A DNA stretch of 64,000 nucleotides from Geosiphon pyriformis uo1. Lineage: Eukaryota > Fungi > Glomeromycota. Shown here in pieces: positions 16,721 through 40,400 of the stretch (its first letter is position 1; each line of letters starts with the position of its first letter). The position numbers were made by a program, and so were the translations under genes. The notes below the pieces were generated by a model. It saw only the letters and a list, made by a program, of their open reading frames with translations, did no database searches and was not told the DNA's origin. The stretch covers positions 296,219 to 360,218 of the forward strand of contig JAAOMT010000760.1 in assembly GCA_016748015.1 (NCBI GenBank), given 5' to 3'.

Positions 16721-16748
16721 TTTGAATTTTGTTGTTGCTGTGTTATTT

Positions 16749-16764
16749 CCATGGGAGAGCACCA
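16749..16764 (-). promoter_or_regulatory. Primer binding site of B
   Basis: TT + TGGTGCTCTCCCATGG directly after the 5' LTR. Confidence 0.85.
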
Positions 16765-16766
16765 AA

Positions 16767-17748: not shown

Positions 17749-18890
17749 CCAGTGATAAATTGATCCAAGATTTGAGCATCAGAATAATAATTATTAATTT
17801 CAAGTTGGTGAATTTGTCTGAGAAGTTTGTTGAATTTCCCAATATAAGTCATAACAGATTTGGAGGGTTCTTGTTTGATATTGCGAAAACAATTTCAAAA
17901 GGTGATGGAGATATTATTGTCAGTGAACTGTTCAAGGAAGGCTGCTTTGAAAGCATCCTAATCATTGAATGGAGTGGCCAAGTTTTCAAACCATTCTCCT
18001 GCTGTTTCTTTGAGAAAGTAGGAAATTGTTCTTAACATTCTGGCAGCATTCCATCTATTTGCATCTCCAGCTTTAGTAACTTGGTTGAGCCATTCTTGGA
18101 GACTGGTCTCAATGTTTTCTCCATTAAATTCAGGGATTTTTGTGATGTATGCTGTCATTTCGTTTTCTTTGTTTTTACTGTCTATTGATTCTTTTTTAGT
18201 TATTTTAGAGTCATTTTCTTCGTTTGCTGCTGTCTCAAAGTGTTCACTTTGATTTTCAGCTAGAAAATCAAGAAGATTGGAACTAGTTTGAAGAGGTTCT
18301 TGCTGTCTGGTGAAACTTCTGAGTAATGTAAAATCTTTTGGTCTTGCAAATCGATTCAAGAGTGAATTAAGTGTTTGTGCTTGTGCAAGTAAAACTAGAA
18401 AAGGTGTGATAATAAGTGGAAGTTTTGACCTGGTTTCTTGTTCAGGTGTTTGTAAGTGTTTGGCAGTTATTTTTGGTAGTATTGGAATATTTGGGGTGGT
18501 TTTTGAGTATTGCTTCAATTTTTGTTTGCCTTTGTTGCTTGTTTCTGTCTCTGATTCAAAATCAATGGAGTATTGAGACTGTACTGGATATGTTTCTTCA
18601 TAGTACTGGATAATGTTAAAATTTAGTTCTTGAAAGTAAGTGGCAAGTGTTTCACTGTTAAGATCTTCAGTTTTCAACTGTGAATAGTGTGCTAAATTGT
18701 TGTAAAGATTGCTTTTAACTTCTGAGATATTGTAATTTCTAAAAAGATAATTGTTGATGTGGTTTTCAATGTATTGGTATACTGATTTTTTGACAACTTC
18801 AATTCCGTCTGGAATGTTGAATTTTTGCTTGCAGTGGGTGTAAATTGATTGGTAATACTCTAGAGTTGTTGCATCTGGTGTGGTTGCCAC
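17749..18890 (-). pseudogene. gag: Gag N-terminal part of A
   Basis: GTG start at 18890. Capsid-like region from ATG 18158 (MTAYITKIPEFNGE...AGEWF). Collinear with B. Confidence 0.9.
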
Positions 18891-18916
18891 TTTGAAGTTG
18901 TTTTGCTGTGTTGTTT

Positions 18917-18932
18917 CTGTGGAAGAGCACCA
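18917..18932 (-). promoter_or_regulatory. Primer binding site of A
   Basis: TGGTGCTCTTCCACAG after the LTR plus TT. Confidence 0.85.
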
Positions 18933-18934
18933 AA

Positions 18935-19921
18935 TGTTACTGGAGGTTTTTGGTCTCTTTTCTTAAATGTTGTTGATGTCTGTTTGCTGTGAATTCCTGT
19001 TTTTTGGATGTGGTTGAACCTCCAGTAACTGAATTTATCTTCAAATTATCTCCTATAATTTGAACTGCTGGGCTTATAAGTAGAATGGCCAATTCCATGC
19101 CAGTTACTTTGTATAGTTACATTGTAGTAAATGTCAACTCTTTCCCAGGAATTGCTCGTCTGGAAGCTCACTAAAAATGTATAGTTACTTTGCTGTGAAA
19201 GTTAACTTTTCTACAAGAATTCTCGTTTGTAGGCTACCCAAAATGATTTATAATAAGAAAAAAAATAAAATAAAAGAAATGTAAAAGAAAAAGTAAAACT
19301 AATAATTTATGGAAGTCATTTCGGATCCAGGCCTAGAAGTGCTTTAACAGTCTACTGAAATTGGTAGCTAATCAATTTCAAACTGTTAGTAGGAATTGGT
19401 TAATTTCAAGAAAAATAATTAAGAATTTGGCTTTTCAAATTATTTGATATTTATTTGTCTTTTGGGTGTAAAGGATTATTCTAATTGTTTAAATCTGAAA
19501 TAAAATACATTTTCTCAAAGAGAGACACTCTTCTTTTATACAACTTGTTGTAACATTATTCTATGAACTCAAACTTTGCTATTTTCTACAATTTTGCTGA
19601 ACTAAAGATACATTTCGACGAACTACAAGTTATTTCTGCAAACTATTAGATATTTCGGTGAACTATCAATTATTTCGGCAAATTTTTACAAATTTTGGCA
19701 AACTTTTTGAATGTTACATAGTTTGGGGTATTGCATGATTGATTATCACAATTAGGTTACATTTGTGTCATATACAAATTGGGTTATTAATTAAATAATA
19801 ATTTCGAACATTTTGCTAATGTAATAAGTGATAATTTGAAATGATAATATATGTTAATTAATAATGGGAATTATAATAATAATTTCATGCTAAATAATAT
19901 CTCTAATTTCGTCTGGTAACA
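18935..19921 (-). repeat. 5' LTR of A
   Basis: Pairs with 280-1242. Confidence 0.95.
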
Positions 19922-20091
19922 ACATAAAAATTGAAGGCTGATTCTGCTGGATAATAGTTGTTGGTTAAACCCAATTGTTGGCTGTACTGTTAAAATAAGA
20001 ATTTAGCAAATTCTAAATGGTTTGTTCCTATTATTTCTGATTCTGCCACTTTTGGATAATGGTTGTTGGTGCTAATTCTCTATAGGATTAT

Positions 20092-20109
20092 ACCTCACAA
20101 GAAGCATCA
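20092..20109 (-). promoter_or_regulatory. Primer binding site of C
   Basis: TGATGCTTCTTGTGAGGT, a decayed TGGTGCTCCTTGTGAGGT. Confidence 0.75.
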
Positions 20110-20111
20110 AA

Positions 20112-20863
20112 TATTACAGATGATTATATTGGGTCTCAAAGCAAATAACAAATCCATAATGTGGTGCTTAATTGATATATTGATCTTGGTTTCTGAAGGT
20201 TTTTTTTATTGAGCCCTTTGTATAATGGACAGAAATTCAATTGTTGTTTCAGTAGCCTTCCAGAATCACAATTCTGTTGAATTTTTTTCTCAGTGTGGTG
20301 ACTGGTAATTCTTCTGGTAAGCTATTTTCAATTATGAGTGTTCTACCCTTGTTTTATAGGTCTTTTACTAATTCCTATAATGTCTGTAACTTAGCACTTT
20401 AATTCTTTTTGATTAGTAAAACAAAAAAAAATAACAAAGAAAAATAAAAGAAAATAAAGAAATAAGCCAAGGCAATTACAAGTTAGTATTCTTTTAATAG
20501 CCATAATCAAGAGCTATTGTTCCAATATGGTTAAGTATCAACTTCTATCAACATAAAATGTTAATAGTGGAGTGGATTTGAGATAGTAAATAATTATTTA
20601 TTGATATTTGTGATGTGGAAGGTTGTTTAGATGAAATTTAAACTGAAAGATCTGTCTTTTTTTCTTCTAATACTACTACTATATATACAAAATTGATGTT
20701 CTATAAGATTACTCACATTCCTGAACAATGTGCTATGATTTCTTGAACAATGTGCTATGGTTTTTGACATTGCTTTATATTGCTGAGCAATGTGCTTATG
20801 TGCTAATTACTACTTTCCTATTGGTCTACTATTTTCTATATCTGTTTTTTTTTATGAATAACA
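20112..20863 (-). repeat. 5' LTR of C
   Basis: Reverse-complement homolog of the D LTR, with decayed TGTTAC/GTAACA termini. Confidence 0.85.
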
Positions 20864-22352
20864 ATAAATGAAATTGACAATCAATACATCTTTTCCAAAA
20901 TTAGCACCCAAACAGTCTATTGTGTCAATCACCCAACTTTTCAAAACAAAACTCTTAGCCAGTGTTATAAACAAATCAATAGAAGAAACAGCCTTATTCA
21001 GTAAATAAGTGACCACATTTCTCTTGGCAAAAGTGCTCAACAATGTATCTTATTCCAAAATAGCATTAGACAATAAAGTTTCCCTAACTTTGCCATCGAA
21101 AATACAAGAGAATATGTGATCAGAGTTTTCTACCATATTACACCAAATGCAAGCAACACTCAGATATCTCAGATTATACATCTTTTTCTTTTTGGCCACC
21201 AGTAAATAATAGTGTAGTGTTTTCATGAAGTATGACTAAAGCATTACTATAGCAGAGTTAGTGTAATCAGATTGGATTTTGTCATTGAAATGCCAAACAC
21301 AAAAAGTTCTAACCATATTAAAACAACCACCAAAATTTGTATTAACAGCACTATTAACACATCTGGTCTTTCAATCAACAGAGTAAACTGTATTGAATAA
21401 TTTTCTAACAACATAATAAGCATTCTCAAAGACAGGCCTGCCTTTAACATTGAGAAAATAATATGACATCACAAAAGACAAAAAGAACCTAGAGATGACT
21501 GTGACATCAACATAGAAATTGGCATGTTTGTTTCCAATAACACCAAAATCACTCTTGACTTTATTCCAAGTAACTGACAAACCTTTTTTAGAAATAACCT
21601 GGCAAATATGTTCTTTTTTAATCCAGCATTTGTCATAAAAGTCAAGACCAGATACACTACTGATGGAGCTGTACATATCCAGTAAAGCTTGGCTGTTAGT
21701 AAACAAATTAACTAATTGAAAAGTGAACACACACTCCAAAGCAAGAGCAATGGCCTGTAGTTTTACCAGAGTTAATAATAGCAACTCATCTACTTTAATC
21801 CCAACACTAGTGTTTATATTTGGAAAATAAGCAACAGCAGCACCACTACAAGCACCTAATAAACCTAAATTTTTAATGAAGCTATTTATATAGATGGTTA
21901 TAAAACCCAACCCAAAATCCAACAGACACTTACCAATATAGCCAAAGTTACAAGAAGAGTCAGTGAAAACAAAATGAAAAGACAATAATAAATTATTTGA
22001 CAAACCACTTTCATTGATAAATTTGACCAAAGAAACAAACTAGACAGAAACTGGGTCTCTAAGGTCTAGTCTCTTCCACTTGCAAAAAGTGTTCTATGCA
22101 AAACATGTGCCATAACAGTCTAAAAACTGGTTTGCAAACACAATGCCATACTTTTTAAGAGATTTTACTATGTCCAAATAAGACTCAGAGCTGAGCACAT
22201 CCAGAACTGCAATACTATTCTCAGCCCAAAAAACATTAGGCAGAATGCCATTCAAAGACAGATTGCACAATTTGAGAACACATATTATGCCAGCCAGAAA
22301 ACAATTTATTGGGTCAATTAACAACTTAATTGGAACTCAAAGAAGGTACTAG
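20864..22352 (-). mobile_element. LINE 1, 3' part of ORF2 (RNase H and C-terminal Cys region)
   Basis: IYINSF (decayed YTDGS)...LQAIALALECV...WNKVKSD..GNKHAN. Rejoins 52927 across element D. Confidence 0.85.
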
Positions 22353-23161
22353 TGTTACTCATAAAAAAAAAACAGATATAGAGAAAATAGTAGACCAATA
22401 AGTGAATAGTATTTAGCACATGAGCACATTACTCAACAATATAGAACAATGACAGAAATTATGGCACATTGCTCAAGAAATCATAGTACATTGTTCAGGA
22501 TTGTGAACGATCTCATAGAACATCAATTATGTATATATAGCAGTAGTGTTAGAAGTAGAAAAGGAGAATCTTTTCATTAAAAACCTTCCAGCTTAGATTT
22601 TATTGAAGTGATCTTCCAATACACAAATATCAATAAATAATTATTCTCTATCTCAAATTTACTATTCACTATCAACACTTCATGTTGATAGTAATTGATA
22701 CTTAACCACACTGGAACAATAGCTCTTAATCACAACTATTAACAGAATACTAATTTGCAATTGCTTTTACTTATTTCTTTATTTTCTTTTATTTTCTTTT
22801 ATTTTCTTTTATTATTTCTTTGGTTTTACTGAAATTGATTAAGGATTAAGTGCTGAGATACAAACATCATAGGAACTGGTAAAAGACCTGTGAAACAAGG
22901 GTAGAACACTCATAGATTTGAGGATAGCTTACTAGGAGGATTACCGGTCACCACGTTGAGAAAGAAATTTGATGAAACTGTGGTTTCAAGAAGCTATAGA
23001 TAAAACCATCAATTAAAATCTCTGTTCATTATACAAAGAACTCCACAACAAAACCTTTAGATAAACTACACCTTTAGATATCATGAACACTAACAAATCA
23101 ATTAAGCACCAAGTTACAAATTTGTTATTTGCTTTGAGACCCCAAATAAACACCTGTAACA
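22353..23161 (+). repeat. 5' LTR of D
   Basis: TGTTAC...TGTAACA followed by TTTGGTGCT. Confidence 0.93.
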
Positions 23162-23163
23162 TT

Positions 23164-23181
23164 TGGTGCTTCCTGTAAAGT
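23164..23181 (+). promoter_or_regulatory. Primer binding site of D
   Basis: TGGTGCTTCCTGTAAAGT. Confidence 0.85.
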
Positions 23182-23223
23182 ATAATTTTACAGAAAACCA
23201 GCACCAACAGCAATTATTGAAAA

Positions 23224-23872
23224 GTGGCAAAATCCAAAAACATAGGAGCAAACCATTTAGGATTCACCAAATTCTTGTTTCAACAGTACAGCCAACAATT
23301 AAGATTAAACAATAACCATTTTTCAGCAGAATTAGTCTTCAACTTCTACATTAATGACAAAATCACAGACTGCTTAAGAGGAACAGTTAATATTGAATCC
23401 ACAAGAAAAAATTTCTATACAGAATTATTTCAACATATCAGTTTACTAAGAAATTACAGTTTTACACCAATTATCAGGGAAATCAATTAAACCATTGAAA
23501 GATACACACAACAACAATTCTCAATTACCTATGCAGACAAAAAAAAAGGAAGACTACAAACACCAACAGCAACACCAAAAGGAACACAACTATCTACTTG
23601 GAAGAAAACCAGAGTTGAATCACCAACAAATCCATCATACTATTATACCTTAGGAAGTGCCATTAACATTTCATCAACAGATGCATCTACATCACATGTG
23701 ACATCAACATTTGGATGACTCCCATTTCAAAGTAAACAAAAGAAAGCAGAATTACTGGAAACCTATGGCAATTATTTTGAAAGATTTAAATTGCAATTGC
23801 CAATGCTATCAGGATTCTAATCACCACCACCTCAACCAGATTTCAGAAATGTGAGTCCTTAGGAGATAACAG
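23224..23872 (+). pseudogene. gag: Gag N-terminal part of D
   Basis: GTG-AKSKNIGANHLGF..., homologous to F gag; continues at 44342. Confidence 0.88.
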
Positions 23873-24329
23873 TGTTATGGGTAAGCTTGGTGAATAATGG
23901 AAATAGTAACATTTGGTGCTTTCAATTATTGGTGATGCATCTTTTGCATAATTTTATTGGCTTAGTCTTGATTATCAGTCTCTGAAAATCTATTTTTGGA
24001 TGTAAATTTACCCATTGAGTTCTTTGGTTATAAGGCACAAAGTTTGTTTTTTGTCAATTGCAACATTTTTCATAAATGTGAGCTTTTTTCTTCAAGCTAA
24101 TGAGCACAGTTGTTAAGGTCTGGCATTGTCTTTTTGCCCTTCTGGTAAGCTATCAAGATAATGTTAATATCCAAAACCTAGGAGGAGCTGCCCTCTTTTA
24201 CCAGACTATTATGAAGTCTATTCTCAGACAATTGATTTTACTATGTTGCCACTCCACACAGAAATCAAGAAAAAAAAAAAGAAGAGAAAAAAAAAAAAAA
24301 AAAAAAAAANNNNNNNNNNNNNNNNNNNN

Positions 24330-24385
<56 letters not shown>

Positions 24386-24855
24386 TTAATATCATCAATC
24401 ACTGTGATCAAGAGTGATTGGTCCAAGTTGTTAATGGTTCGAGGTGATTATGCTAAGAGCATCTGTCCTAGAACGGAGGTAAGAGACAATAAATTCAATT
24501 GAAACATAGATGTTTAGAGAACAGAGGTTTGCAATTTTGAATATACAATTTATTTAGAAATATGTATATAAGCTAAAAGATAAAAGAATAAAGAAAATTG
24601 ATTCTTGTCTAACTGTCTATTTTTTTCTAGCTTTTATAACTACTCGTTTTTATACATTTTTTTGGTTTTACAGGATTGCTTACAATTGTTATGTTATCAC
24701 TAGCTATTGCTTTGTTATTTCTGTTATTGCTTCATTATTCTATGTTATTGCTAGTTATCTTGTGTTATAACACATTATCTGGCATTATTACATGCTATTC
24801 TGTATTATCCTATGTTATAATGTTTTATCCTGCATTATTCTAAGTTATAATACAT
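23873..24855 (-). repeat. 3' LTR of E, left segment (remainder at 35120-35225)
   Basis: Matches 43286-44240. Contains a long A tract and a 20-N gap (24310-24329). Confidence 0.9.
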
Positions 24856-25810
24856 TGTTATTCATAGAATATAGGAAATATAGTATTATTAGTCAGTAGA
24901 TATTAGCCAATCAGATGTAGATGTAGTAAATGTGGAATTCCAAGATTCCTTTCAGAGAAATTGCAGGATTCCCTGACGAGGAATCACAGGATTCCAGAAT
25001 TCCAGGATTTCTCTCATCAGGAATCACAAGATTCCAAGAATTCCAGGATTCTTGTCACAAGGAATTGAGGAATTAAGGAATCTCAAATATATATATATAG
25101 CAGTAGCATTAGAAGCAGAAAAAATAGAATCAACACTAAGAATTCTTAGCTTAGTTACTACAATCCTCAAATAAATAATTATTTACTATATCAAATTCAT
25201 TCTCCACTATCAACACTTCATGTTGATGGTAATTAATACTTAACCATACTGGAACAATAGTTCTTGATCATGGCTATTGATGGGATACTAACTTGCAAAT
25301 TGCCTTGGCTTATTTTTTATTTTCTCTTTTATCTTTCTTTATTTTCTTTGTTGTCTACTGATTTGATTAAAGGATTTACTCTTGGAGGACTTATAGAGGA
25401 ATAAAACTTACTTAAAAATACTTACTCTTGAAGGACTTATGAAGGAATAAACTTGCTTAAACAATACTTACTCTTGGAGGACTTACAGAGGAATAAACTT
25501 GCTTAAACAATACATACTCTTGGAAAACTTACAGAGGAACTGACATCAAGAAACAGCACTGGTATACACTTACGGAGGATATCGTACCAGAAGAATCATG
25601 AACCATTAAGCTAAGCAAGCAATCAATAAAACTACAGTTTCAGAAAACTACTAATAAACTGTTATAATTGAATCTCTGTCCATTATACAAAGAACTCGAT
25701 TGGAAAACCTTCAGATCAAATACCTTCAGATTATCATTGTCACTAATTGCCTTGAGCACCAAGTTATGAATTTGTTATTTTATTAACACCCCAAAGAATC
25801 ACTTGTAACA
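24856..25810 (+). repeat. 5' LTR of F
   Basis: Pairs with 34209-35119. CCAAT near 24907, (TA)n TATA-like element at 25088-25099. Confidence 0.94.
25376..25540 (+). repeat. 46-bp tandem repeat (about 3.6 units) in the F 5' LTR
   Basis: Unit TTACTCTTGGAGGACTTACAGAGGAATAAACTTGCTTAAACAATAC; about 2.6 units in the 3' LTR (34746-34864). Confidence 0.9.
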
Positions 25811-25812
25811 TT

Positions 25813-25830
25813 TGGTGCTCCTTGTGAGAT
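25813..25830 (+). promoter_or_regulatory. Primer binding site of F
   Basis: TGGTGCTCCTTGTGAGAT, complementary to a tRNA ending ...CUCACAAGGAGCACCA. Elongator Met or Ile(UAU) are candidates, not verified. Confidence 0.85.
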
Positions 25831-25869
25831 ATAATCCTACAGAGAACCAGTACCAACACAAATCTAAAC

Positions 25870-28800
25870 ATGGCAGAATCAGAAATTATAGGAGCCAACC
25901 ACTTAAGATTTGCAAAATTCTTGTTTCAACAATACAGCCAACTATTAGGATTAAACAATAATCACTACTCAGCCGAATCAGCCTTCAACTATTATGTCAA
26001 TGATAAAATTACAGACTGCCTAAAAGGAGCCGTTAATATTGAATCAGCAAGAAAAAATTTCTATATGGAATTATTTCAACACACCAGCTTACTAAGAAAT
26101 CACAGTTTTGCCCCAATCATCAGGAAAATTAATCAAACCATTGAAAGATACACGCAACAACAATTTCCCATTACCTATGCAGACAAAGGTAAAAGAAGAA
26201 TACAAACACTAGCAGCAACACCAAAAGAAATACAGTTACCTAGTTGGAAGAAACACAGAGTAGAATCACCAACTGCTCTATTATATTACTACACACCTAG
26301 AAGCACCATCAACATTTTATCAGCAGACGTGTCCACCTCAAATGCAACATCAATATTTGAAAGATTTTAGTTCCAAAGCAAACAACAAAAAGAAGACTTA
26401 CTAGGATCATACAGAGTGTATTTTGAAGGATTTAAATCACAATCTCCAATGCCATCAGAAATTTGATCACCAATACCCCAACCAGATTTCAGAGCTGCTA
26501 CTCCATGGGAATTATCAGAGGAAGAAGAGGAAGAAAAAGAGGATCAAGGATTCATCTACCAAAACCCAATCTCAGAAAACTCAGAATTTAAAAACCCAAA
26601 TTTTCAAACCCCAATAAACCCAAATCTAGAAAATCTGGAAAATGCAACTCCAAATATTCAAACACTGCAAAACCCTGAACAAATTAATCAAAATAACTTA
26701 CCTCCGAATATCGTCATCAATCAACCACCAATTGATTCAATAGCCAAACCTATACACTAACTCATCCAACAGCTGTATCAACCAAATCAACCACCCCTTC
26801 AGCAACCTGTTCAACAGCCATTTCAACCACCACCACAACAACTTCAACAACCTGTGCAGCAACAAATGGTATACACACCTATAGCCAAACTTGAAAAATT
26901 TACTGGCAACAAAAATGACGCACAAACATGGATAAACGACGTCGCCAAAGCAATTGTCACTAATAATTGGAACAACACCAAAGCCCTTCAAGCAATCCCC
27001 TATTTTCTCTAGGATACTGCAAATGCATGGTATTAGAGTTTAATTGCCTCACTACAGACATTTCAGCAGTTCAAAACCGAGTTTCTGAGATATTTCAGCA
27101 ATAATAATAGCATCAACAGATTAGCCAACACTTTCAACACCATCAAACAAGGAGACATTGAAGCAGTCACCACTTACCTGGAATGCTTCTATAAAAATCT
27201 GCATCAGATTCAGACCATTGAAGCTAACTACTTCACAGCACCACAAATTTTAAATCAATTTATTAGAGGATTGCACAACAGCATCCTCCAATGAGTATGC
27301 CCAATGCATCCAGCTAACCTACCAACTGCAGTCACATACACTAGAGATTTTGAAGCCACAGAACTCAAGGCTAATCATGCCCAAGCCATCAACCTAGTGA
27401 TAAATGGATTATCTGAATTGGACTTCAAATTGAAACAATTTAGTAATTCAATTAATCAGAAATTGAAAGGATACTTAGCTGACAATCGCACAATTTATCA
27501 ACCACTTCAATGATGCAGCAATCCAGGAAACTACAATTGTTCCCAAAATCAAGCACATCTTTCAACATCGGCCAATCAGCAGTGGCAGCCAAAGATGCAT
27601 GTCTGTCACAACTGTGATAAACAAGGGCACATCAAAGCAAACTGCAATGTTTATAACCATCCATGATTGGGAAATCAATATAGAAACCCTGATCGCCAAT
27701 TTCAAACTCTGAGATATTAACAAAATCAGGAACAATATCAACCCATTTACCTGCCAGTGATGCAGCCAATGTATCAAATGCCTACACCAGTATATCAAAC
27801 TCCGATTTATCAACTGCAGCTGCAAGTAATATATCAACTGTAGCCACAAATCATCTATCAACCCCAACCAATTCAAACACTGCCCCAGAAATCAGCTCAA
27901 ATAACATTAGACAACCCTCAATCCAGAGTTACTCAAAACTGAAGATCAGCAATGGTTGTTTACCAACTGGTCCCCAGTTCATTAAACCCACAATCAGAAT
28001 CACGCCCATGGAATTTGGATACTGGTCACACTCAAAACCCAAATTTCCAATACTATTTAAGTCTCCTGGTTACCTCAGAAGACTCCACATCCAACAAACT
28101 GGAATCCAATCAGCAATTACTTACCAACACAATTCCACTAGCAACCATCTCCAATGATAAATCCCTAGCAGCTATTTTTCCTTTTAAACCCGAAGAAATC
28201 ACACTGGTACCATTATTTAGTGGAGCCATTCTCAAAGAAAAATCCATTACAGTGATGTACACGGATGTCAGAGTTGATGATCACCCCATCAAACTCATCC
28301 TAGATAGTGGATCAGCTGGCAGTATTATCACAAGACAGCTCATAGATCAATTAGGTCACTGAGTTGATTGAGCTGTCAGCACTAGAATCATCACAGCCGA
28401 TGGAGTGACCAAAACTCCAATTGGCGAAATTGATAACTTCCCTTTCGAAGTCAATGGCATTGTAACTCCCATTAAAGTTTTAGTGATGGAAGCCACTCAA
28501 TACCAAGCTCTTGTTGGTAATGACTGGCTATTCAAAGTCAACATGACATTAGACTGGAACACCCAGGAACTCCAGCTAACATATTAGAACCAACACATAC
28601 GTGTACTGGCCACATGTGGCCACTTCAAGACTCCTCCAAAAGAGAAACTATTGATCGAACTGGAGGAGATAAAAGAGAAACCTACCTGGGAAGCTTACCA
28701 AGTCTCCTGGGCCAATGCTGACCACAACAAACTACCACCCATACTATCATGGGATGACAAAAAGAAAAAAAAAAGAGAAAGAAGAACTTACTTGGAAAAC

Positions 28801-31800
28801 AAATTAGGGATCTTGAAGTGATGACAGCCAAAGTGAACTAACCACAGAATAGATTTGAGAAGAGAAAGGAAAAGGAAAGGAACAAGAAAAAGAGCCAGCA
28901 CAATCTATCACCCCTATATATGTCTCATATTCTACACAACCTCAGGCCACCTACCATCGACCTAAACTTGAATGTGTCACTTGTAGCAAGAAATTGTCAA
29001 CGATGGGTGCATGTTGTGGCAATGATGAAAACTGGTGGACAGTAACATGATACTATTGTTGCCCATGCGTTATTGAACACAATGGCCGACCACTAAAAAT
29101 AGAAAAATAGGACAATATGCCATGTCTAGCATGCAGAGAAACACTTTTGGACAAAGGAATGTGGAATAACATTCCAGGGTGAAGAGGAATGTGCGATAAA
29201 ACATGCCAGTACACAATCCTAATAAATAATTGGGTATGAAAAGAGACCTCAATCGATGACACATAGAAATGAGCCTTAAGATATTTGGAAGGCTACTCAC
29301 ATGACAAACATGAGATCTGGAGAATAACATATACAATAGCAGAAGGAGCTACAGCCAGCAAGTTGCAGAAAATCAAAACCAATCTGTTATTCCTCCCAGA
29401 GCCAGAATATGTTGCAACATTTGACGTTTTTGGCAACGTTGAGGACGATTCCGAGGAATTTCACAAACACTACCAACAACTAGCACCCACAAGAGAAGAA
29501 CAAGAAGAATGGTTAGCACAGCTAAACACTTGATTATGTGACCACTGTTTGATCCCATGTGACTTTCAATATTGTAATAAGTGTGATCTCATTTACAATC
29601 CACCAATTCACATGATCTACACAATTCCAAAAGAAAAGAAACCAATCAGCAGCTGCACATCAGAATCAGGATCACTATTCGATCCCAATTTAAACTCTGA
29701 CAATAATGACAATGAAAACACCAGTTCCAGCTCTGTTCAATATGGCAATAACAACAATACTGATTCCAACTCAGATTCAAACTCCGATACAAAATATGAA
29801 CAATATATTGCAATTTCTGACTTCACTAGAGAATTGGAACTAAAATGGTTTAGCGATAATGATAAGGGTATTATGCCTAAATGTGTACATAATACTAATG
29901 CCGGGTTTAATCTGAGGTATCCAAAAAAAGAGGCCATCAAATTAAAACCATATTTACACACCTGTATTGATCTGAAAGTAGCACTAGAAATTCTAGCAAC
30001 AACAATGGTTCAATTAGCATCTAGGAGTAGTTTAGTGAAAAGAGGAATTAATATAAGAGGAGGAATAATTGATGCAGGATATATAAGAAATATCATTGCT
30101 ATACTACAAAATAATTCAAAAAAAGTCTATATAATAGAGCTCAATGAAAAGATAGCACAGGCAATATTCCTGCTTCTGGTTAGAGTAGCTCAGTTAATAT
30201 TAGTGGAAAAGAGGGAGAAATTAAGAATAACAGTGAGAGGGATACAGAGATTCAGATCAACAGATAGAATAGATGTGCCAGTCAATATGACAGAAGAAGA
30301 AATTGTTGGCCAAGGAGAAATTATCTCAACTGGTCAAGCAATTTCCATTCCACCATATGACCAGTACATAATAACAATAGAAAAGAAGGTAAAAAGCCAA
30401 GCACAAATTTTTGAAGCAGAAGCAAGTCTTTGTGAATCAGAAGAAGTTGAATTCATCAATCTTCACATACCAGCCAAGAACTATAACCACATCAAAATTC
30501 CCATCTACAACAACACCAGAAATGTTGTCAATATACTAAAAGGAACCATCATCAGATATTTGACCACAGAAATAGAGGATCAACCACTAAGCACTATTCC
30601 AGACTTTCCACAGCTTTGTGGATATGTCAATATCACATCACAAACAATATACAGATAAAACAAATGTTATTTGCTTCAATCAGAACAGTTGGAACAAATG
30701 AACATGGGAAATTTAGATTCACTCCAACATATGCAACTTAAGATGTTGCTCAACAATTTCAATGACATCTTTGTGAGTTTGGCCAAACTGACATCATCCA
30801 GCATTAGATCAAGACTGGAAATGCAATGCTAATTAAACAAAGAGCATACAGAGTACTACCAGCTAGCCACAAGATTATTCGTCAAGAGATAAACCAAATG
30901 CTTGACAATGGGCTAATTCAGCCATCAATGAGCCCATGGTCATCACCAGTGGTACTCATTCAAAAAAGAATGGGAAAATTTGCTTTTGTGTGGATTATAG
31001 AAAACTCAATGGAGTAATTTGTGGAGATAACTACCCCACTCCACGGATCCAAGAATTATTCGACGCTTTTAGTAGAAACAAATGGTTTTTAACATTAGAC
31101 TTGAACAGTGGTTACTGGCAAGTAGCCATGGATCCAGCCGACAAAGAAAAGACAGCATTCACTACCAGAAAAGAAAATTTCGAATTTGAAGTAATGTCAT
31201 TTGGCTTAACCAATGCACCAGCCATTTTCCAATGGCTAATGGAAATTGTTTATACTGGCTTATTGTGGAAATCAGTAGTTGTATACTTGGACAACACCAA
31301 TGTATTCTCAAAAACATTTGATGATCATCTTCATTATCTTCAAGTGTTCAAAAGACTAAGAAGAGCAAGACTAAAGTTAAATGCAACAAAATGCTTCTTC
31401 AGCAAGACAGAACTAAAATTCTTGAGACACATAGTCAGCAAAAATGGCATCAAAACAGATCCAGAGAAAATAGAAATAGTAAAGAACTTTCCAGTGCTGA
31501 CTGATATGACAGAACTGAAATCATTCTTGGGATTTGCCAGCTACTATCAACGTTTTATTAAGAACTTTTCCAAGATAGTGCAGCCACTCAACCAACTGCA
31601 AACCAAGAATACAAAATATGAATGGACAGAAAGTCAACAAGAAGCTTTTGATATTCTAAAAAGAAAACTTATTTAAGCTCTAGTACTGATCTATTCAGAT
31701 CACAGCAAACCATTTATCATCACCACTGATGCATCCAGCCAAGCATTGAGAGCAGTACTATCTCAGAGAGGAACAGATGGCAGAAAACATCCAGTAGCAT

Positions 31801-32068
31801 ATGCCAGCAGAAGTTTAACACCAGCTAAAAAGAACTATGGAACACCAGACTAAAAACACTTAGTGATATACTGAACAGTCATGAAATGGAAAGAATACTT
31901 GAACCAGAAGTTTGAAATATACACAGATCACAAAGGATTAACATCACTTCAAAAACAAGAATTCAGAGATGGAAAATGGCACTCGCACCATATAATTATA
32001 CTATACATTATAAAAAGAGAAAAGACAATGGAAATGCTGACGGTTTGTCACAAATGAGACAAATTTAA
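25870..32068 (+). pseudogene. gag-pol: Gag-PR-Cys-rich-dUTPase-RT-RNase H of F
   Basis: CHNCDKQGHIKANC knuckle, LILDSGSAGSII, dUTPase AGFNL/SRSSL/GGIIDAGY/EKIAQAI, RT LDLNSGYWQV and YLD(D>N), RNase H TTDAS; ends ADGLSQMRQI*. Confidence 0.92.
29840..30265 (+). pseudogene. dut: dUTPase domain of F
   Basis: All five trimeric dUTPase motifs recognisable, partly decayed. Confidence 0.88.
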
Positions 32069-32130
32069 GAACATTTTAACCCAAAAATATAACAAAACCA
32101 GAACAATACCAACGAAAAATATAACAAAGA

Positions 32131-33512
32131 ATAAACATACAAAAATATCAACAACTGCAACATTATATAAACACTCAACAGTTCAAGGAGAATTTATCTC
32201 AAATGGAATGAAAGAGTATCAAACAACAATCAAAATATTTTATCACTCACCAAAATATACTTTATCAGAAAAATAGAAGAGATCTAGAGCAACCAACCAG
32301 AGTAATTACAGAGCCAGAAAAAGAGACAATATTATTCAACATGTACTCAAATCCAACAGCAGGACACTTTCATAAAGAAGCAACCATAGAAAGAACCAGA
32401 AAAAGATACTATTGGCCATCAATGTATCCAGACATCATTCAATATGTTCAAAATTATAATGTTTGTTAATGAAGAGGAAGTACGAAACCCAGTGAACCAT
32501 TAAGACCAATCAAAGTGGAACAACCATTTGACCATATTGGAATTGATTTAGTCAGACCATTAACAATCACCAACAGAGGAAACAGGTACATAGCAGTAGC
32601 CATGAACTATCTCACTAAATGGCCAGAGGCAAAAACAATTCAAAGAGTGGATGCAGAATCTGTTGCCGAATTTGTTCATCAAGATTTGATCTGTCAACAT
32701 AGATGTCCAAAAGAATTACTTTCAGACCAAAGAACTCATTTTTGAACAGAACATTAGCAGAATTAAGCCAAAGATTCAGAATTAAAAGACCATTATCATC
32801 ACCATACTATCCACAAACCAATGGATTAGTCAAAAGATTCAACAGAACATTGTGTAAAGCAATAGTTAAACTCAGCCAAGAAAACCAGAACGATTGGGAT
32901 TTGTTGATACTATTAGTACTATTTGCTTATTAGACAATGAAACAAGATACTACACAAGCAACACCATTTGAATTAGTATATAGTAGAACAACAATACTAC
33001 CAGTGGAAATAGAAGTCAGCACATACTCAACCGAACCAATAACAGAAGAGAATTTCAAAAACACATTGTTGAAAAAAACATATAACTTAATGGAAACATT
33101 AGAAAACAAACAACAAAGAGCAGCTGATAACATACAAAGATCACAAGAGAAACAAAAAGAAAGACATAATAACCAACTACCAGATAAACCAGTTGAATTC
33201 AGGATTGAAGACAGATTACTACTACATTGTACCAAAGCAGAAAAACAATGGAGTAGAAAATTTGACCCCAAATGGGACGGACCATTTCACATAGAAGAAA
33301 TTCTAGGAAATGGAGCTTACAAATTAAGATTGAATAACAAAATCTTGACCAAAGCAGCACATGGAGATTGACTGAAACCATATCACTATACAGCATCATC
33401 ATCTACCAGTAATATTCTACAATTAGAAGTACAGAGAATACTAGTCCAACCAGATGAGATTCCATGAGATCTGGAACCAATTATTATTATTGACAACAAC
33501 ACGTCCAATTAA
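32131..33512 (+). pseudogene. int: Integrase ORF of F
   Basis: (M>I)NIQKYQQLQHYI..., rve core, KWDGPF, C-terminal LEPIIII. Confidence 0.9.
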
Positions 33513-33565
33513 TTGACAAAAAAATATATAAGAACATAATTGACGTGACAGAAAAGATCAAAAAA

Positions 33566-34195
33566 ATGGAAATTACAGACAATATTCATGCACTAGCCCA
33601 ACAAATTTTTCAATTAATCCAACACCAGGAGATGAAAATTACAATCAATTAACAAACCATTTGTTACAAAAATACGGCAAAGATACCACAAAACAAAGCA
33701 CAGAAAAGACTTGAAAATGTTGTTGACAAGATCATAACCAAGATAAAATTGGCCATAAAAGAACAACAAATAGTCGGATTACACCAAAAACTTACCAGAG
33801 AAACTTGGATTTGGTGGACACAACAATTTCCAAAAAATTATTGTTACTTTTACTTGGAACAACACGTGAATATCTAGAACTTATATACGGATAAAACAAA
33901 GTGGTTATTTGACACAATAATACTACAACAACTAGAACATTTTGTGGGGAAAAACAACTTATCCACACAAGCTCGAGCTATATACTGAATACACACAGCA
34001 TTTCAGGATCAACCAGAAATCTTACTCAACAAAGCAATAAATACGGTTACCAGTAATCAATTGGGAAAAATCACCAATGCTCAATTTGAAAAATTACAGA
34101 CTTAAATAACACAAGTAATTCTCAAAAACAAAATTCAGGAAATACTTTAAGAGGGAGAATTAAAAAAATTAGATTTCGACGGAGCTTAATATTAA
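33566..34195 (+). pseudogene. ORF3 of F (209 codons, single frame)
   Basis: MEITDNIHALAQQIFQLI...FDGA(Q)Y*. Internal stops are all one C>T away from CAA/CAG/CGA. Confidence 0.8.
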
Positions 34196-34208
34196 AAGAA
34201 GGGAATAA

Positions 34209-35119
34209 TGTTACTCATAGAATATAAAAAATATAGTATTATTAGTCAGTAAATATTAGCCAATCAGATGTAGATGTAATAAATGTGGAATTTTAGGATT
34301 TCTTTCAGAGGAATTGCAGGATTCCAGGAATTTCAGGATTTCCAGATGAGGAATTACAGGATTCCAGAATTCCAGAATTTCTCTTATTAGGAATCGCAAG
34401 ATTCCAGGAATTCCAGGATTCTTGTTGCAAGGAATTGAGAAATTGAGGAATCTCAAATATATATATATAGCAGTAGCGTTAGAAGCAGAAAAGACAGAAT
34501 CGACACCAAAAATTTTTAGCTTAGTTACCACAATCCTCAAATAAATAATTATTTATTATATCAAATTCATTCTCCACTATCAACACTTCATGTTGATGGT
34601 AACTAATACTTAACCATACTGGAACAATAGTTCTTGATCACGGCTATTGACGGAATACTAACTTGTAAATTGCCTTGGCTTATTTTTTATTTTCTCTTTT
34701 ATCTTTCTTTATTTTCTTTGTTGTCTACTGACTTGATTAAAGAATTTACTCTTAGAGGACTTATGGAGGAATAAAACTTACTTAAAAATACTTATTCTTG
34801 GAGGACTTACGGAGGAATAAACTTGCTTAAACAATACTTACTCTTGGAGGACTTACAGAGGAACTGACGTTAGGAAACAGCACTGATATACACTTACGGA
34901 GGATATTGTACCAGGAGAATTATCAACTATCAAGCTGAGCAAGCAATTGACGAAACTATGGTTTCAGAAAACTATTAATAAACTGTTACCATTGAATCTC
35001 TGTCCATTATACAAAAAACTTGATTGGAAAACCTTCAGATTATCATTGTCACTAATTGTCTTGAGCACCAAATTATGGGTTTGTTATTTCATTAACACCC
35101 CAAAGAATCACTTGTAACA
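34209..35119 (+). repeat. 3' LTR of F
   Basis: Follows the PPT AAAAGAAGGGAATAA. Confidence 0.94.
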
Positions 35120-35239
35120 ATGTTATTCTATGTTATTGCATGTTATTCTGTGTTATGTCATGTTTTGTTTACACTTTGGTCACGTTTTTCTCATAATTTG
35201 GATCGGTTTTTCTACTTGGATAACATTATCCCTCTCTTT

Positions 35240-35973
35240 TTAAAATTGAGCTTCTGTAAAACCATATGTATCTATTGTCATGGCTTCATTCATGTAATGT
35301 TTGATGGTTGCTTCAAGTACTGTCTTTTGTAGGTTTTTGAACTGTTGATTGGTTATTTGTCCTATGTTGTTAACTATTATGGTTTTCATAGATCTGTTTA
35401 GTAGTACATTTGGGCAATGTTGGAAGGCAGCATATAGTTGGTATGCTGTTTTGTAATATAGGGTTAGGTTGTTTCTTCCTATGTATTTTTCTACTTTTTG
35501 CATTGCTTCTTTGTTGAACATTCTCTGGCTGAAGTCTTTATATAATGTTTTCAAGTCAAGCTGTTCTTCAATTTTGTAAAACCAATAGGCTGGCAGAAGT
35601 TTTTCTTTCTATTGCTGGGCATTGTCTAGTGTCTATTCCTCTGTTTCAGGGAGTTCGGTCTCACAAAATAAAAATTTTTTAATTCTTCTATCTTGGAGAC
35701 CAAGTATTTTTTTTTGTAATCTTTTTCTTGTTTCTTTACTCTTTCTTCTCCACCTTCTGCCCAAAGGCAATTTTTTCTCCAATATTGCCTTTCGGGTGGT
35801 GGGTAGAAAAGAGAATGTTTAATTCTAATTGAACTCTCGTCCTTCCCTCTCCTGCTTTTATCTTTGTACTGTATCTCTTTTTTATCAATTGTTATTTTTA
35901 TTTGAGCAGAAGATTGTTGAATTGCATCAAACAGTTGTTTCGAAAGTTGTAAAATTTAATCTGAAAGGTCCAT
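35240..35973 (-). pseudogene. ORF3 of E
   Basis: MDLSD(Q)ILQLSKQLFDAIQ...KTAYQLYAAFQHCPNVLL...GFTEAQF* ending at the PPT. Confidence 0.78.
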
Positions 35974-36055
35974 GTTGAAATTCTGTTGATTTATTTTTAT
36001 TGTTTCAGTAATTATATATACTTGAATTTTCTAATTAAATAGTTATGTATCACTT

Positions 36056-37423
36056 TTATGTTTCGATGATGATGATTGGTTCCAGATCTTGTGATATATT
36101 TTCTGGTCTGATTAACAGAATTTGTGTTCCTAATTAAGATACTAATGACAATGACTGCTGTTTTGTATAATAAATTTTTAATCAGTTCCCATGAGCTACT
36201 TTCTTTAAAATTTTGTTTTCCAATTGTAGTTTGTAAGCTCTATTTCCTAAAGCTTTGTGTATGTGGAATGGACCATTCCACTTTGGGTCAAACTTTCCAC
36301 TCCACTGTTTTTTAGCTTTTGTATGATGTAACAGTACCTGGTCTTCAATCTTGAATTCCATTGGTTGTTTAGGCAGACAATTGTTATGTCTTTCTTTTTG
36401 TTATTTTTGAGTGTTATTAATATTATCAGCTGCTGTTTTTCGGTTGTTTTCTAACATCTCTATTAGCTGGTATGTTTTTTGGTGTAAGGTAGCTTTGAAA
36501 TTTTCTTCGGTAATTGTTTCTGTTGGGTAGAACAATATTTTTTGTTCGATAGATAACGTTACTTTTCTTTCATAGACTAGTTCGAATGATGTAAATTGTG
36601 TTGTATTTTGTTTTAGTGTTCAGTATGCAAAAAGTATTGAAGGTATAAATAAGTCTTATTCTTGTTCATTTTCTTGACTTATTTTTGCTAGTGCTTTACA
36701 AAGTGTTTGGTTAAACCATTCTACCAGTCTGTTTGTTTGTGGGTGATATGGTAATGATAAAGGATGTTTTATACCAAACCATTGGCTTAATTCTATTAGT
36801 GTATTATTGATAAAATGTGTTCCTTGGTTAGATAACAATTCTTTTGGGCATCCATGTTTGCAAATTAGATCTTGGTGTATGAATTCCACTACTGTTTTGG
36901 CATCAGCTACTTGGATTGCTCTAGCTTCTGGCCATTTTGTAAGATAGTCTACAGCTACAGTAATGTACCAATTTCTTTTGGATGTAATTGAAAGAGAACC
37001 AACCAAATCAATTCCAATTCTATCAAATAGATTTCTAACTGAAATGGGTCAAAGTGGTTCTGTTGATTTTGCTTTTTCTCTCCACTAGCATGAGTTACAA
37101 TTGAGAACATATTTGAAGATGTCTTTGTACATTGTTGGCCAATAATATAAATTTAGTGTTCTTTTGAAGATAGCATCTTTGTTAAAGTGTCTTGCAGTCA
37201 GATCTGAGTGCATGCTATATAGTATAGTTTTTTTTTCACTGTCCTTGATTAGTCATTGTGGAGTGGAGTGGTTTCAGTGTTCTTGTCAATATAGTTGGTT
37301 GTCTTGAATAAAATAATTTTGGGCTTGTTTTTGTATGATACTTTGTTTCTGTTGAGATAATATCTTCTTGAAATGTAGTGTCAATAGATACTGATATAGT
37401 TGTTAATAAGTGAGTGTGTCCAT
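36056..37423 (-). pseudogene. int: Integrase ORF of E
   Basis: Own ATG (MDTLTY(Q)QLYQYLLTL), VAVDYLTKWPEARAI, HGCPKELLS, LEPIIII; 456 codons. Confidence 0.9.
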
Positions 37424-37433
37424 GGATCTGGAA

Positions 37434-40400
37434 TTAGGTTTGTGGCATTCTCGACAAACTGTCAGCATTGGTGTTCTTGGATCCTTCCTTATAATGGACT
37501 TTAAGTAGAATTGTTGCAAATACATACTCCATCTTGTATATTTTTCTTCTAGTTGTGGATTGTTGAGTAACCAAATAAGTCTTTTGTGGTCAGTATATAG
37601 GTCAAATGGTTAACTGAGGTAATGTTTCTATGTCTGTACTGCCCAATAAATGGTGAGCCATTCCAAGATTGTTGCACTATATACTTTTTCTGCTGGACTT
37701 GTACTACGACTAGCATATGCAATTAGATGTTCTCTTTTGTCTGGTTCTATCTAAGATAAAACGGCTCTTAGTGCATTTTTTGAGGCATCCATAGTAATGA
37801 TGAAATGTTTGGTGAAATCAGAGTAGATCAATATCAGAGAGGTGATCAACTGCTGCTTGAGATAGTCGAATGCTTTCTGCTGGTTTTTTCTCCATAGGTA
37901 TAGTACATATTTGGATAATAAATAATAAAGAGGTTTTGTGATGGTGGAGAATCCCTTGATAAATTTTCGATAGTATCTTGCTAATCTTAAAAATTCTCAT
38001 AATTCTCATAAGTTGTTTGGGGCTGGAAAGTCTTTGACTTTTTGGATTTTGTCTGGATTAGGCTTAATTTCATCTTTTCTGATCATGTGCCCTAAGAACT
38101 TTAGTTCAGTTTTTCCAAAGAAGTACTTGTTGGGATTGAGTTTTAATCTGGTGTTTTAAAAGCATTTGAACACTTGTTAAAAGTAAAGCAAATGGTTGTC
38201 AAATGTTTTTAAGAACATGTTAGTATCATCCAGATAAACTATGACTGATTTCCAAAGGATTCTTTTGTATACTACATCCATGAGACATTAAAAAGTGGCA
38301 AAAGCATTACAAAGTCTAAAAGGCATCATGTTAAATTCGAAATTGCTATCTTGAGTAGTAAATGCTGTTTTTTTTTTGTCTTTGGGGTCCATTTTAACTT
38401 GCCAATAGCTATTGGCTAAATCTAATAACAAGAACCATTTTTTTTTTCCTAGATTGTTCAAGATTTCTTGGATGAGAGGAGTGGGATAATTATCTCCTTG
38501 CATAACATTATTTAGTTTCCTGTAATCTATGCAGAATTGTGCCTTTCCATTTTTCTTAGTAACTAGAACTATTAGGGAGGACCAAGGGCTTAATGATTTT
38601 TTAATCAGTCCGTTGTCAAGCATTTGTTGTACTTCCTGTTTAATCAAATTATTGCCAGATGGGAGTATATGATAAGCTTGTTGTTTAATTAGTCGAGCAT
38701 CTCTCATATCAATTTGATGCTTCATGATGTCGGTGCGTTTGAACTCATTTTTGCTGGCAAAAACATCAGCATACTGATTCAGAAAGACTTTGAGTTGAAT
38801 TTGTTGCAGGGTATTTAAGTTTTCTAAATTCAATTTATTAATTTCTTCTGGTGTAAACAAGTAACTTTCTTTTGGCAAATTCCATACTTGTAAGATAATG
38901 TTGCAGAATAAGAATAATTGTGTAAAATCTGGAATGGACTGGGTTTTTTCAAGATTCTGAATATTTGTGGATATGGAACTGATGAGAGTTCCTTCAAGGA
39001 TTTCAATGACATCTTCTGTGAGGTTGTGAATGGGAATTTTAAAGTGTTTATGGGCTTTTGTTGGTAGATACAAGTTAGCAATGTCGGCTAAAGAGCAAAT
39101 TTCAGGATCAGCTTCAAATAACAGGGCCTGGTCTTGGATTTTCCAATTCACTTTGAGGATATATTGTCAATAGAGAGAGATGGAAATAATGGTGTTGGTG
39201 TAAATAAGTTCTACTTGGTCACTGTCTTCCTTTATGAGATTGACTGGTACGTTTCCTCTTCCACTTGATCCAAACCCATTGATTTTTCAGACAGTAAGGC
39301 CTAACTTTTCTCAGATTGTTACTGGGGTTAATTGGGGTATTTTGACTAGAGGTAGGAAGATAGCTTGGGCAATCTTTTCTTGTAATTCTATTTTGTAGGG
39401 TCTGTTCAAATTGTTCTGTAGTATTACAATAATGTTCCCTGTGTAACCAGCATTGATGATTCCTCCTTTTATGTCAATTTTTTTCTTGGCTAGACTAGAT
39501 TGAAAGACAACTTGTACCATTGTATTAACAGGAATTTTTAACACTATCTTAAGATCTATTTTTACAAGGAAATATGGGGCTATAATGATGAGTGATTGTC
39601 TGGGATATTATAGGTCGAAACCAGCATCAGTATCATGCACTTTTTCAAAGCAGATTCCTTTCTCATTGTCACTGTACCATTTTAGCTTTAGTTCTTTGGA
39701 TAAGTTAGAATACGCGAGGTATTGTTCTGTTTCGGTAGTCTCACTTGGCTCTTGAAATGGCATGTCCTTAGCTATTAACTCAGTTTCTTCTTTGGATTCT
39801 GGTAGTTTGTCAATATGATATAATGTTCTTGGCAGTAGATTGAACATGAAGTTACATTCATCACAGTACTGAAAATAGCAAGGGATTAGGCAATGATCAC
39901 ATAGTTTCTTGTTTAGATCAACTAGTCTCTGTTCCTGTTCTTCTCGAGTTGGGGCCAATTCTTGGTAATGATCTTAAAATGTGTCTGGGTTGTCAGTAAA
40001 AAACTCTTCGGTAATGTAATTGGATCCATCGTATTTGGATACAAATGGATTTTCTTTGATTTCTCAGATTTCACTGAGTGTGGCATCTTCAGCTTTGGCA
40101 CTTGCCATTCTCCATATTTTGTGTTTATCATGCAGGTACCCGTCTAATTGATTGAATGCTTGTTTCCAGATGTTCTCGATTAGGGTTTCCTTTTATACCC
40201 AATTATTGATCAAGATGATATATTGACATGTTTCATCACATGTCTCTCCTCTGCCAAGTACATTATTCCAGAGTCTTTCATCTGGCAGGATCTCACCAAA
40301 GGTAAGGCATAGTGTATTGTCCTATTTATCTTGTCATTTTGGTCATCCAAATCTGTTCAGTAAACAAGATCTGCAGTAGTATTTGGTGGCAGTGGGCCAT

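Follow-up and report, generated by a model that had tools for sequence, protein, structure and literature searches.

In a textbook long terminal repeat (LTR) retrotransposon, integrase reaches the particle within Gag-Pol. An integrase with a gene of its own therefore raises the question of how the enzyme is translated and packaged. Such genes occur in a 64,000-nucleotide (nt) stretch of the glomeromycete fungus Geosiphon pyriformis uo1 (assembly GCA_016748015.1, contig JAAOMT010000760.1, positions 296,219 to 360,218 of the forward strand), called the window below, with positions counted from its first letter. Self-comparison of the window reveals LTR elements, here A to F, arranged as two nests, besides a solo-type LTR, G; element F (24856..35119) is described part by part. 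The elements form a Ty3/Gypsy lineage with non-canonical expression, and all window copies are dead. On balance, we read them as remnants of a lineage with three reading frames, encoding Gag-protease-reverse transcriptase (RT)-RNase H, integrase and ORF3 (the third open reading frame, ORF), in which Gag would be leaky-scanned, integrase made by ribosome re-entry and ORF3 driven by a TATA box.

The integrase gene and its clade

Element F is laid out as follows.

24856..25810, +, 5' LTR, with TATA at 25088-25099 and 46-nt tandem repeats
25255..25279, +, hairpin with palindromic TGATCA loop, common to D, E and G, decayed in C
25754..25762, +, 9-nt complement, in U5, of the primer-binding site (PBS); folds onto the PBS; not in A or B
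25813..25830, +, PBS, begins TGG, tRNA-type
25870..26865, +, Gag N-terminal extension; first codon ATG in F, GTG in A-E
26866..27645, +, second start (AUG at 26866), capsid and CCHC knuckle (Pfam)
28264..28530, +, aspartyl protease (Pfam)
28961..29641, +, Cys-rich domain, no Pfam match
29867..30244, +, dUTPase (Pfam)
30775..32068, +, RT and RNase H, ending at the conserved stop TAA, 32066-32068
32069..32130, +, spacer: non-coding, G-poor, unstructured, AUG-free; about 31 nt longer than that of E
32131..33512, +, integrase ORF, free-standing, start now ATA, one frame change near 32745, without chromodomain
33525..33532, +, TATA box in non-coding spacer, 41 nt upstream of ORF3; candidate internal promoter
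33566..34189, +, ORF3, divergent member of a large all-alpha soluble family in the clade
34194..34205, +, polypurine tract (PPT)
34209..35119, +, 3' LTR

F is recognizably a Ty3/Gypsy element. Its LTRs end in TG..CA and differ by 7.9%, transitions making up 68 of the 71 differences, and Pfam finds, in order, Retrotrans_gag/Ty3_capsid, zf-CCHC (weak, E 0.02), aspartyl protease, dUTPase, RVT_1, RNase H and the integrase zinc, core and SH3 domains. The short target-site duplication (TSD), the capsid-protease-RT-RNase H-integrase order and an integrase with HHCC, catalytic core and GPY/F module agree with this placement, and the nearest long homologs are gypsy-type polyproteins. An earlier, sequence-only reading of this DNA had claimed an LTR, PBS and PPT frame, which is borne out for F (PBS TGG at 25813, PPT, 4-bp TSD), and a domain order of protease, Cys-rich domain, dUTPase, RT and RNase H, which Pfam and alignment confirm. 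It also took F for an uninterrupted exemplar; F is free of nested insertion but holds about 36 in-frame stops and at least five frame changes. Its RT motif is dead (YLDN); the motif is damaged in A, B and E as well, and D has no match to it.

Pol ends and integrase begins at conserved points. In all five of A, B, D, E and F the RNase H ORF ends four codons past the 'LSR' position; the integrase start follows the stop after 51, 51, 10, 31 and 62 nt, in frames 0, 0, +1, +1 and +2 relative to Pol. Stops common to all copies aligned there stand in two columns only, the RNase H end and the integrase end; every other internal stop is sense in at least one copy. Variant frequencies come throughout from X1, contigs from one sample that is possibly the window's own source. 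With 2,578 X1 contigs placed and variants listed at 10% or more at the F junction, none is listed at the stop (32066-68), and position 32133 is G in 72% of depth, restoring the integrase AUG. The separate integrase behind a stop that the sequence-only reading had proposed stands in five of five elements; its start is now ATA in F, by decay, and likewise ATA in B.

Relatives share this junction. Searching with the integrase of A (top 120 homologs, limited to 253-807 aa) gave a Met start in 118, placed 68-84 residues before the second HHCC His in 99, and an RNase H end in none of the 120. The GPY/F module is present in 114, with chains ending a median of 45 residues after it; neither A nor F integrase has a chromodomain match, and an integrase fragment labelled Geosiphon pyriformis is 81% identical. 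The earlier reading had also asked for intact copies with the same layout, and soil-metagenome loci (L-numbers; the best 80 of 544 confirmed) supplied them. An RNase H end is visible in 31, a fused Pol-integrase in 0 of these, and several loci are intact, with one Gag-Pol ORF of 1,370-1,650 aa, then integrase, then ORF3. Across 34 hand-checked junctions the three frames occur 12, 10 and 12 times, and the gaps run from -20 to 521 nt (median 62), seven of them at most 5 nt, 19 of 6-100 nt and eight longer. At the level of sequence, these comparisons establish a three-ORF layout with a genuine stop after RNase H and a conserved integrase AUG.

Longer forms were sought as well. The search returned five in-clade proteins with both RT and integrase, namely four eukaryotic gene models with broken junctions and P0124, weighed below. 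Of the NCBI "fused" entries, P0122, P0123 and P0125 are each missing the RNase H end or the integrase start and resemble gene models spliced across the junction; P0126 keeps the RNase H end, with unrelated sequence after it, and was rejected as a fusion.

The gypsy lineage is widespread and reaches far beyond the window, with integrase as a separate gene, ORF3 as an accessory one and expression control of its own. The integrase tree (102 rows, unnamed or NCBI-named homologs only; quick search, with Shimodaira-Hasegawa-like approximate likelihood ratio test, SH-aLRT, as the only support) places on one branch 63 of 64 split rows together with the five long proteins of the clade (SH-aLRT 98). The window's five integrases are a subclade (93) adjoining L002, and the five also group in the RT tree (96). 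An integrase-before-RT order occurs in 10 of 81 long homologs, and the two of these placed in the tree fall outside the clade. Three weak integrase matches in viral contigs were not used. The layout is not a product of decay, and the hosts are likely glomeromycete.

Expression of integrase, Gag and ORF3

Integrase may be made by ribosomes that re-enter just past the Pol stop on the same RNA. We hold tentatively that entry is by reinitiation or internally, helped in one subfamily by a structured RNA. The window's spacers are short, G-poor and AUG-free, with a folding energy of 0. A purine occupies -3 of the integrase AUG in 48 of 51 cases, and 22 of 30 spacers lack AUG. To be packaged, a free integrase would need to bind RNA, Gag-Pol or ORF3, much as foamy-virus Pol enters the particle by binding.

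The structured RNA is a 40-nt element between the Pol stop and the integrase AUG, comprising a lower stem, a 12-nt purine-rich bulge and an upper stem-loop. Its 16 distinct sequences pair in 97.4% of cells, with both sides changed in 7 of the 12 pairs, for a structure (RNAalifold) derived from the same sequences as those tested. None of 500 shuffles reached the covariation score, and slid controls paired at 20-52%. A covariance model finds the element in 19 of the 80 metagenome loci (for example L013:587-623 and L032:4465-4501), always abutting the integrase AUG and nowhere else in them. It is confined to one subfamily, 12 of the 13 rows of one integrase-tree branch. In the 11 of 19 motif loci scanned, no Rfam family matched the motif with an E of 5 or lower. 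Three pattern matches in viral contigs, without stems or model score, were discarded. Members of the same subfamily (L020:4350-5166, L028, L032, L038, L043) carry a 236-344-aa tail with a Cys/His cluster after RNase H.

Gag appears to have two starts. In A to E it opens with GTG (context AAAGTGG) and in F with ATG, at 25870, a position read as G in about 75% of X1 depth (36 contigs); in C, D, E and F this codon is closely preceded by an in-frame stop. Because decay runs G>A, GTG is taken as the family state, and the ATG of F is either decay or a subfamily change. In intact relatives a 157-274-aa extension precedes a second, capsid-proximal AUG. In the 5,298 nt between the two starts of nine intact relatives, out-of-frame AUGs number 0, where 500 codon shuffles give 60.6 +/- 5.9; the zero count of in-frame AUGs is partly by construction. 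Downstream, the same relatives hold 88 AUGs in 3,206 nt. A fixed 450-nt interval, applied to all 14 relatives, contains 0-1 AUG in the 11 with a weak first start (10 with a pyrimidine at -3, one CUG) and 11-16 in the three with A at -3. In L039 (5107) the intact extension runs 200 codons without any AUG before the capsid, and where the start is expected there is a CUG in strong context. The depletion is kept in the window extensions of A, B, E and F, with 3 (A), 1 (B), 8 (E) and 8 (F) AUGs, and equal downstream lengths hold 16 (B), 20 (E) and 19 (F).

These comparisons establish, in the sequences themselves, a GUG, CUG or weak-AUG first start followed by depletion of AUG between the two Gag starts. 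An AUG-free stretch after a weak start is the expected signature of leaky scanning, and it is very likely that ribosomes scanned past the first start, which would yield long and short Gag-Pol. The GUG-started Gag of the earlier reading thus survives for A-E, with the X1 depth, the CUG relative and the AUG depletion behind it, but not for F as it stands.

The relatives' extension is a domain in its own right. L020:328-810 and 11 other loci encode a Gag N-terminal domain with invariant H, H, C and C (H-x3-5-H..C-x2-C), modelled confidently as helical (predicted local distance difference test, pLDDT, 87.5) and without a PDB match. The window's extension does not align with it (hhalign probability 0.1%). 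Five relatives have an in-frame UGA-CUA between Gag-protease and RT (L006:2882, L007:870, L029:3290, L062:1585, L050:3358). UGA-CUA is a read-through context in viruses, and programmed read-through in this one subfamily is likely.

ORF3 belongs to a large family. It is homologous across A, D, E and F, while the B copy runs into an assembly gap (8546-9372), so the conserved ORF3 claimed earlier is upheld for four elements, with a third-position transversion excess in F against E, and cut short in B. Window ORF3s match that of L002 (E about 1e-10 for A and F), and the window/L002 group matches the wider family (hhalign 94%, E 1e-7). A hidden Markov model (HMM) built without window rows finds the ORF3 of D as its best window match, at E 0.0006 among 858 chunks, and A, E and F poorly. 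The family numbers 601 representatives at 50% identity, and proteins of Glomus cerebriforme and Rhizophagus irregularis belong to it. It has a median isoelectric point of 8.8 and conserves Arg and Tyr; its model is all-alpha (pLDDT 97).

Searches for known relatives of ORF3 were negative within their scope. No 19-residue hydropathy window reaches 1.9 in 123 family members or four window-type ORF3s, no Pfam family recurs in 125 members, no PDB sequence matches under E 0.15, and Foldseek finds no fold match in PDB or BFVD, the space searched; a second look gave a best Z of 4.3. Leads to a Mucoromycota hypothetical protein, a closterovirus coat protein and phage RegA were weak and not used. With no hydrophobic segment and an all-alpha model, ORF3 is rejected as env. 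ORF3 is fused behind integrase in P0124 and the lineage has no chromodomain, which together suggest a targeting or regulatory role; ORF3 may be a nucleic-acid-binding accessory that replaces the chromodomain, acting in integration targeting or regulation. Other ORFs were noted in relatives: L009:1945-2889 has an unrelated 314-aa ORF in the place of ORF3, with what we take to be a Nudix-like motif, and antisense ORFs of about 200-230 aa lie at L021:5493-6191 (-) and L039:6750-7337 (-).

A TATA box stands at a fixed place before ORF3. TATAWAWR occurs at -75..-25 in 13 of 24 relatives, 39-63 nt before the AUG (shuffle mean 0.95, maximum 4), and in four of five window copies (A, D, E, F) a TATA lies at -41 to -56 in non-coding spacer. 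AUG is depleted before ORF3 in the last 60 nt only. Motif counts thus establish a positioned TATA, and we think it likely that ORF3 had an internal promoter and would be made from a short mRNA of its own. The sequence-only reading had proposed an undescribed lineage with its own translational control: the separate integrase clade (SH-aLRT 98) and the non-AUG Gag fit that proposal, but since ORF3 probably has its own promoter, not all of the control would be translational.

Points against and rival explanations

Several observations weigh against leaky-scanned Gag, re-entry integrase and TATA-driven ORF3 in a single split-integrase lineage. P0124, a metagenome protein from a JGI contig, is a true RT-RNase H-integrase-ORF3 fusion in one ORF and sits inside the split clade; L059, which is split, falls outside the integrase clade; and the base of the RT tree is unresolved. 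Reinitiation after an ORF of more than 1,000 codons is normally poor without a helper element, and a scan of the window with the 40-nt RNA model came up empty (best E 0.11). Gaps of more than 100 nt occur at 8 of the 34 junctions, and simple reinitiation cannot get past the 7-8 AUGs in two of the long spacers (365 and 521 nt). The Gag extension of D is not AUG-poor (8 against 7 downstream). ORF3 is detected by the family HMM in 17 of 31 loci with at least 650 nt after integrase and is therefore not universal, and 9 of the 13 relatives' TATA boxes reach into the final 5-74 nt of the integrase ORF, where the motif may owe something to codons. Every expression step, finally, is one that we infer from sequence.

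For integrase, ribosome re-entry remains our preferred, if tentative, choice over an internal promoter or splicing. The nearest rival, which we consider less likely, is a subgenomic mRNA from an internal promoter near the RNase H end, as ORF3 probably has. Gaps of -20 to 521 nt in all three frames would suit it, and only a late 5' end would avoid the AUGs of the long spacers. A relaxed TATAWA stands in the -100..-25 interval of 13 of 44 loci, where 7.9 would be expected (p 0.03), but a strict TATA in only 6 (expected 2.4); A, B and D have none, and the sole ones of E and F stand at -91 and -122. For the RNase H 'YK' codon TAT is used in 8 of 8, but other YK pairs are mostly TAT too (4 of 6).

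Splicing, in which a leader would be joined to an acceptor before the AUG as for retroviral env or foamy-virus pol, we judge improbable. One or two AGs lie near the integrase AUG in each window spacer, and ORF3s of LTR elements typically come from spliced messages (PMC5408684). Against this, a branch point plus YAG within 100 nt occurs in 11 of 51 loci against 16 in shuffles, the L002 spacer has no AG at all, and the donor-like GTGAG sits inside the PBS and is missing in A and B.

A Pol-integrase polyprotein made by stop read-through or frameshifting, the ordinary gypsy behaviour, is very improbable. The integrase of A and of B is in frame with Pol (TAG plus 51 nt), a read-through-type UGA-CUA stop is used elsewhere in the clade and P0124 is one full fusion, but the three frames are used about equally, non-coding spacers reach 521 nt and the integrase Met is fixed in position and in strong context. 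That the stops and GTG are decay artefacts of dead copies can be dismissed, for although decay is heavy (F has a CpG observed/expected ratio of 0.24, and transitions account for about 96% of LTR-pair differences), the X1 contigs keep the stop constant, undecayed relatives with open ORFs of 1,400-1,650 aa share it and so refute the idea, and G>A decay makes ATG from GTG, not the reverse.

A fuller version of the re-entry reading is possible, though we hold it loosely. An undescribed, diverse glomeromycete lineage of Metaviridae would use internal-ribosome-entry-site (IRES)-type entry for integrase, guided in one subfamily by a new RNA acting as IRES, ribozyme or nuclease block. It would make Gag isoforms by non-AUG leaky scanning or UGA-CUA read-through, and express, from a foamy-virus-like internal promoter, a new-fold accessory protein that would either take over targeting from the chromodomain or serve as a transactivator.

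Known systems and the rest of the window

The lineage resembles several known systems in parts. With yeast Ty3 and other Metaviridae it shares the order LTR-PBS-gag-protease-RT-RNase H-integrase-PPT-LTR, and Ty3 Gag-Pol (7q5b) is the best solved relative of the integrase profile (E 8e-48). Unlike Ty3, it has integrase outside Pol, Gag and Pol in one ORF with two starts, an extra ORF3 and a 4-bp TSD. Foamy viruses (Spumaretrovirinae) express their enzyme gene apart from Gag and use a 3' internal promoter for an accessory gene; prototype foamy virus integrase is the second-best solved match (E 7e-31). There, however, splicing sets the whole of Pol apart and env is present, whereas here integrase alone is separate, env is absent and Gag has a CCHC knuckle. 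In murine leukaemia virus, glyco-Gag arises from a non-AUG or weak upstream start in frame with the strong Gag AUG, giving an N-extended Gag, and leaky-scanning viral RNAs are purged of AUGs between starts. Unlike the glyco-Gag extension, the one here is a helical domain, HHCC in relatives and unrelated-looking in the window.

Integrase does not lie upstream of RT in the window elements, as it does in Gmr1-like elements, nor inside Pol as in canonical two-gene Ty3-like elements; it is split off in all five window elements and in all 31 loci that show the junction. The integrase C-terminus lacks the chromodomain of chromoviruses, and the third ORF is not the membrane glycoprotein of env-bearing gypsy elements and errantiviruses. 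A dUTPase between protease and RT is known in fungal and rotifer gypsy elements (PMC2864245, PMC6431247 and PMC5408684), including PosPlaTy3-5 (Postia), Tmt1 (Tuber) and bdelloid Juno, Vesta and TelKA. The same sources report extra ORFs of unknown function (PMC2864245) and ORF3s (PMC5408684) in dUTPase-bearing elements. As described there, those elements have one or two ORFs with integrase within Pol, and the rotifer ORF3s are env-, GDSL- or DEDDy-like, while the window ORF3 has no Pfam or Foldseek match. "Retrovirus-like", the earlier label for this toolkit, is therefore overstated in parts: ORF3 is not env, dUTPase is known in gypsy elements, and the anti-PBS and LTR hairpin are subfamily traits.

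These last two features are indeed variable. The TGATCA-loop hairpin occurs in the LTRs of D, E, F and G, is decayed in C and has changed stem pairs in D; A and B have another palindromic hairpin at a similar position. The 9-nt anti-PBS is present in C, D, E, F and G, absent from A and B, and recurs in one of 11 intact relatives, far upstream there. A role in dimerisation or priming is conceivable. By sequence distribution the anti-PBS and this particular hairpin belong to a subfamily, and the claimed place of the anti-PBS in the shared plan holds for C-G and fails for A and B. In self-priming Tf1/sushi elements the PBS pairs with the transcript's own 5' end rather than a tRNA; here the PBS begins TGG and its complement lies about 660 nt past the LTR TATA (missing in A and B).

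One or two ORFs are the fungal norm, and LTR elements have expanded in Geosiphon, as PMC11952901, PMC6431247, PMC2864245, PMC9963178, PMC5408684, PMC2774666, PMC5911963, PMC4427930 and bioRxiv 2021.03.30.436303 jointly indicate. In the papers searched we found no gypsy clade with a free-standing integrase and no GUG-started gypsy Gag; supplements, Repbase, GyDB, REXdb, Dfam and subscription journals lay outside the search, and the PMC11952901 repeat library and PMC2864245 Additional file 1 may bear on novelty. New parts include the covarying RNA, the 601-representative protein family without a matched fold and natural GUG and CUG Gag starts. Gypsy elements of R. irregularis are reported to be expressed and to have expanded recently (bioRxiv 2021.03.30.436303), and since the clade has relatives there, how integrase is made can be tested. 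LTR elements make up 41.2% of the G. pyriformis genome (PMC11952901), and 102 "hypothetical proteins" are fragments of the elements described here, so gene catalogues of these fungi are affected.

Those 102 proteins are the homologs of the Cys-rich domain, all 102 from Geosiphon pyriformis. The domain is a block of about 225 aa between protease and dUTPase; aligned over A, B, D, E and F, it has 42 invariant columns, including 11 Cys. It has no match among the metagenome loci, so a likeness to the L059 insert or to the Cys tails after RNase H is unsupported. A programmed stop within it was rejected: the codons TAG, TGA, TAG, TGG and TAG reflect independent Trp decay.

The other elements of the window are as follows.

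280..19921 (280-7987 + 17749-19921), -, element A, same plan as F, split by B
7988..17748, -, element B, inside the gag of A; 4-bp TSD; N gap 8546-9372
19922..20866, -, element C: LTR, PBS and GTG Gag start; resumes at 1-279 past the A insertion
23873..44341, -, element D, inside the gag of E; its 3' LTR hosts F
22353..52926 (22353-23872 + 44342-52926), +, element E, same plan, split by D
54617..55451, +, G, solo-type LTR related to the F LTR

A is itself inserted in C. The 4-bp TSDs are exact in A and B and decayed in D, E and F, and LTR pairs are 6-11% diverged, nearly all by transitions. Coding selection has left its trace: transversions between F and E show a third-position excess in every coding block (positions 1/2/3: Gag extension 4/8/14, Cys-rich domain 15/14/36, ORF3 C-terminal half 19/11/30), so these blocks, the Gag extension, Cys-rich domain and ORF3 included, were once under such selection. 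C>T and G>A changes between the paired LTRs of A, E and F are spread over every context, only about a quarter at CpG, and decay is therefore broader than CpG deamination alone.

Two N gaps interrupt the assembly: 8546-9372 hides the rest of the B ORF3 and 3' LTR, and 24310-24329 lies within a long poly-A run in the LTR of D. The insertion target of E is a long, nearly open frame at 20866-22350 (-), with a 222-aa ORF at 21371-22039, that resembles the 3' part of another retroelement. A further pair of direct repeats, 66% identical, lies at 53216-54186 and 62429-63404.

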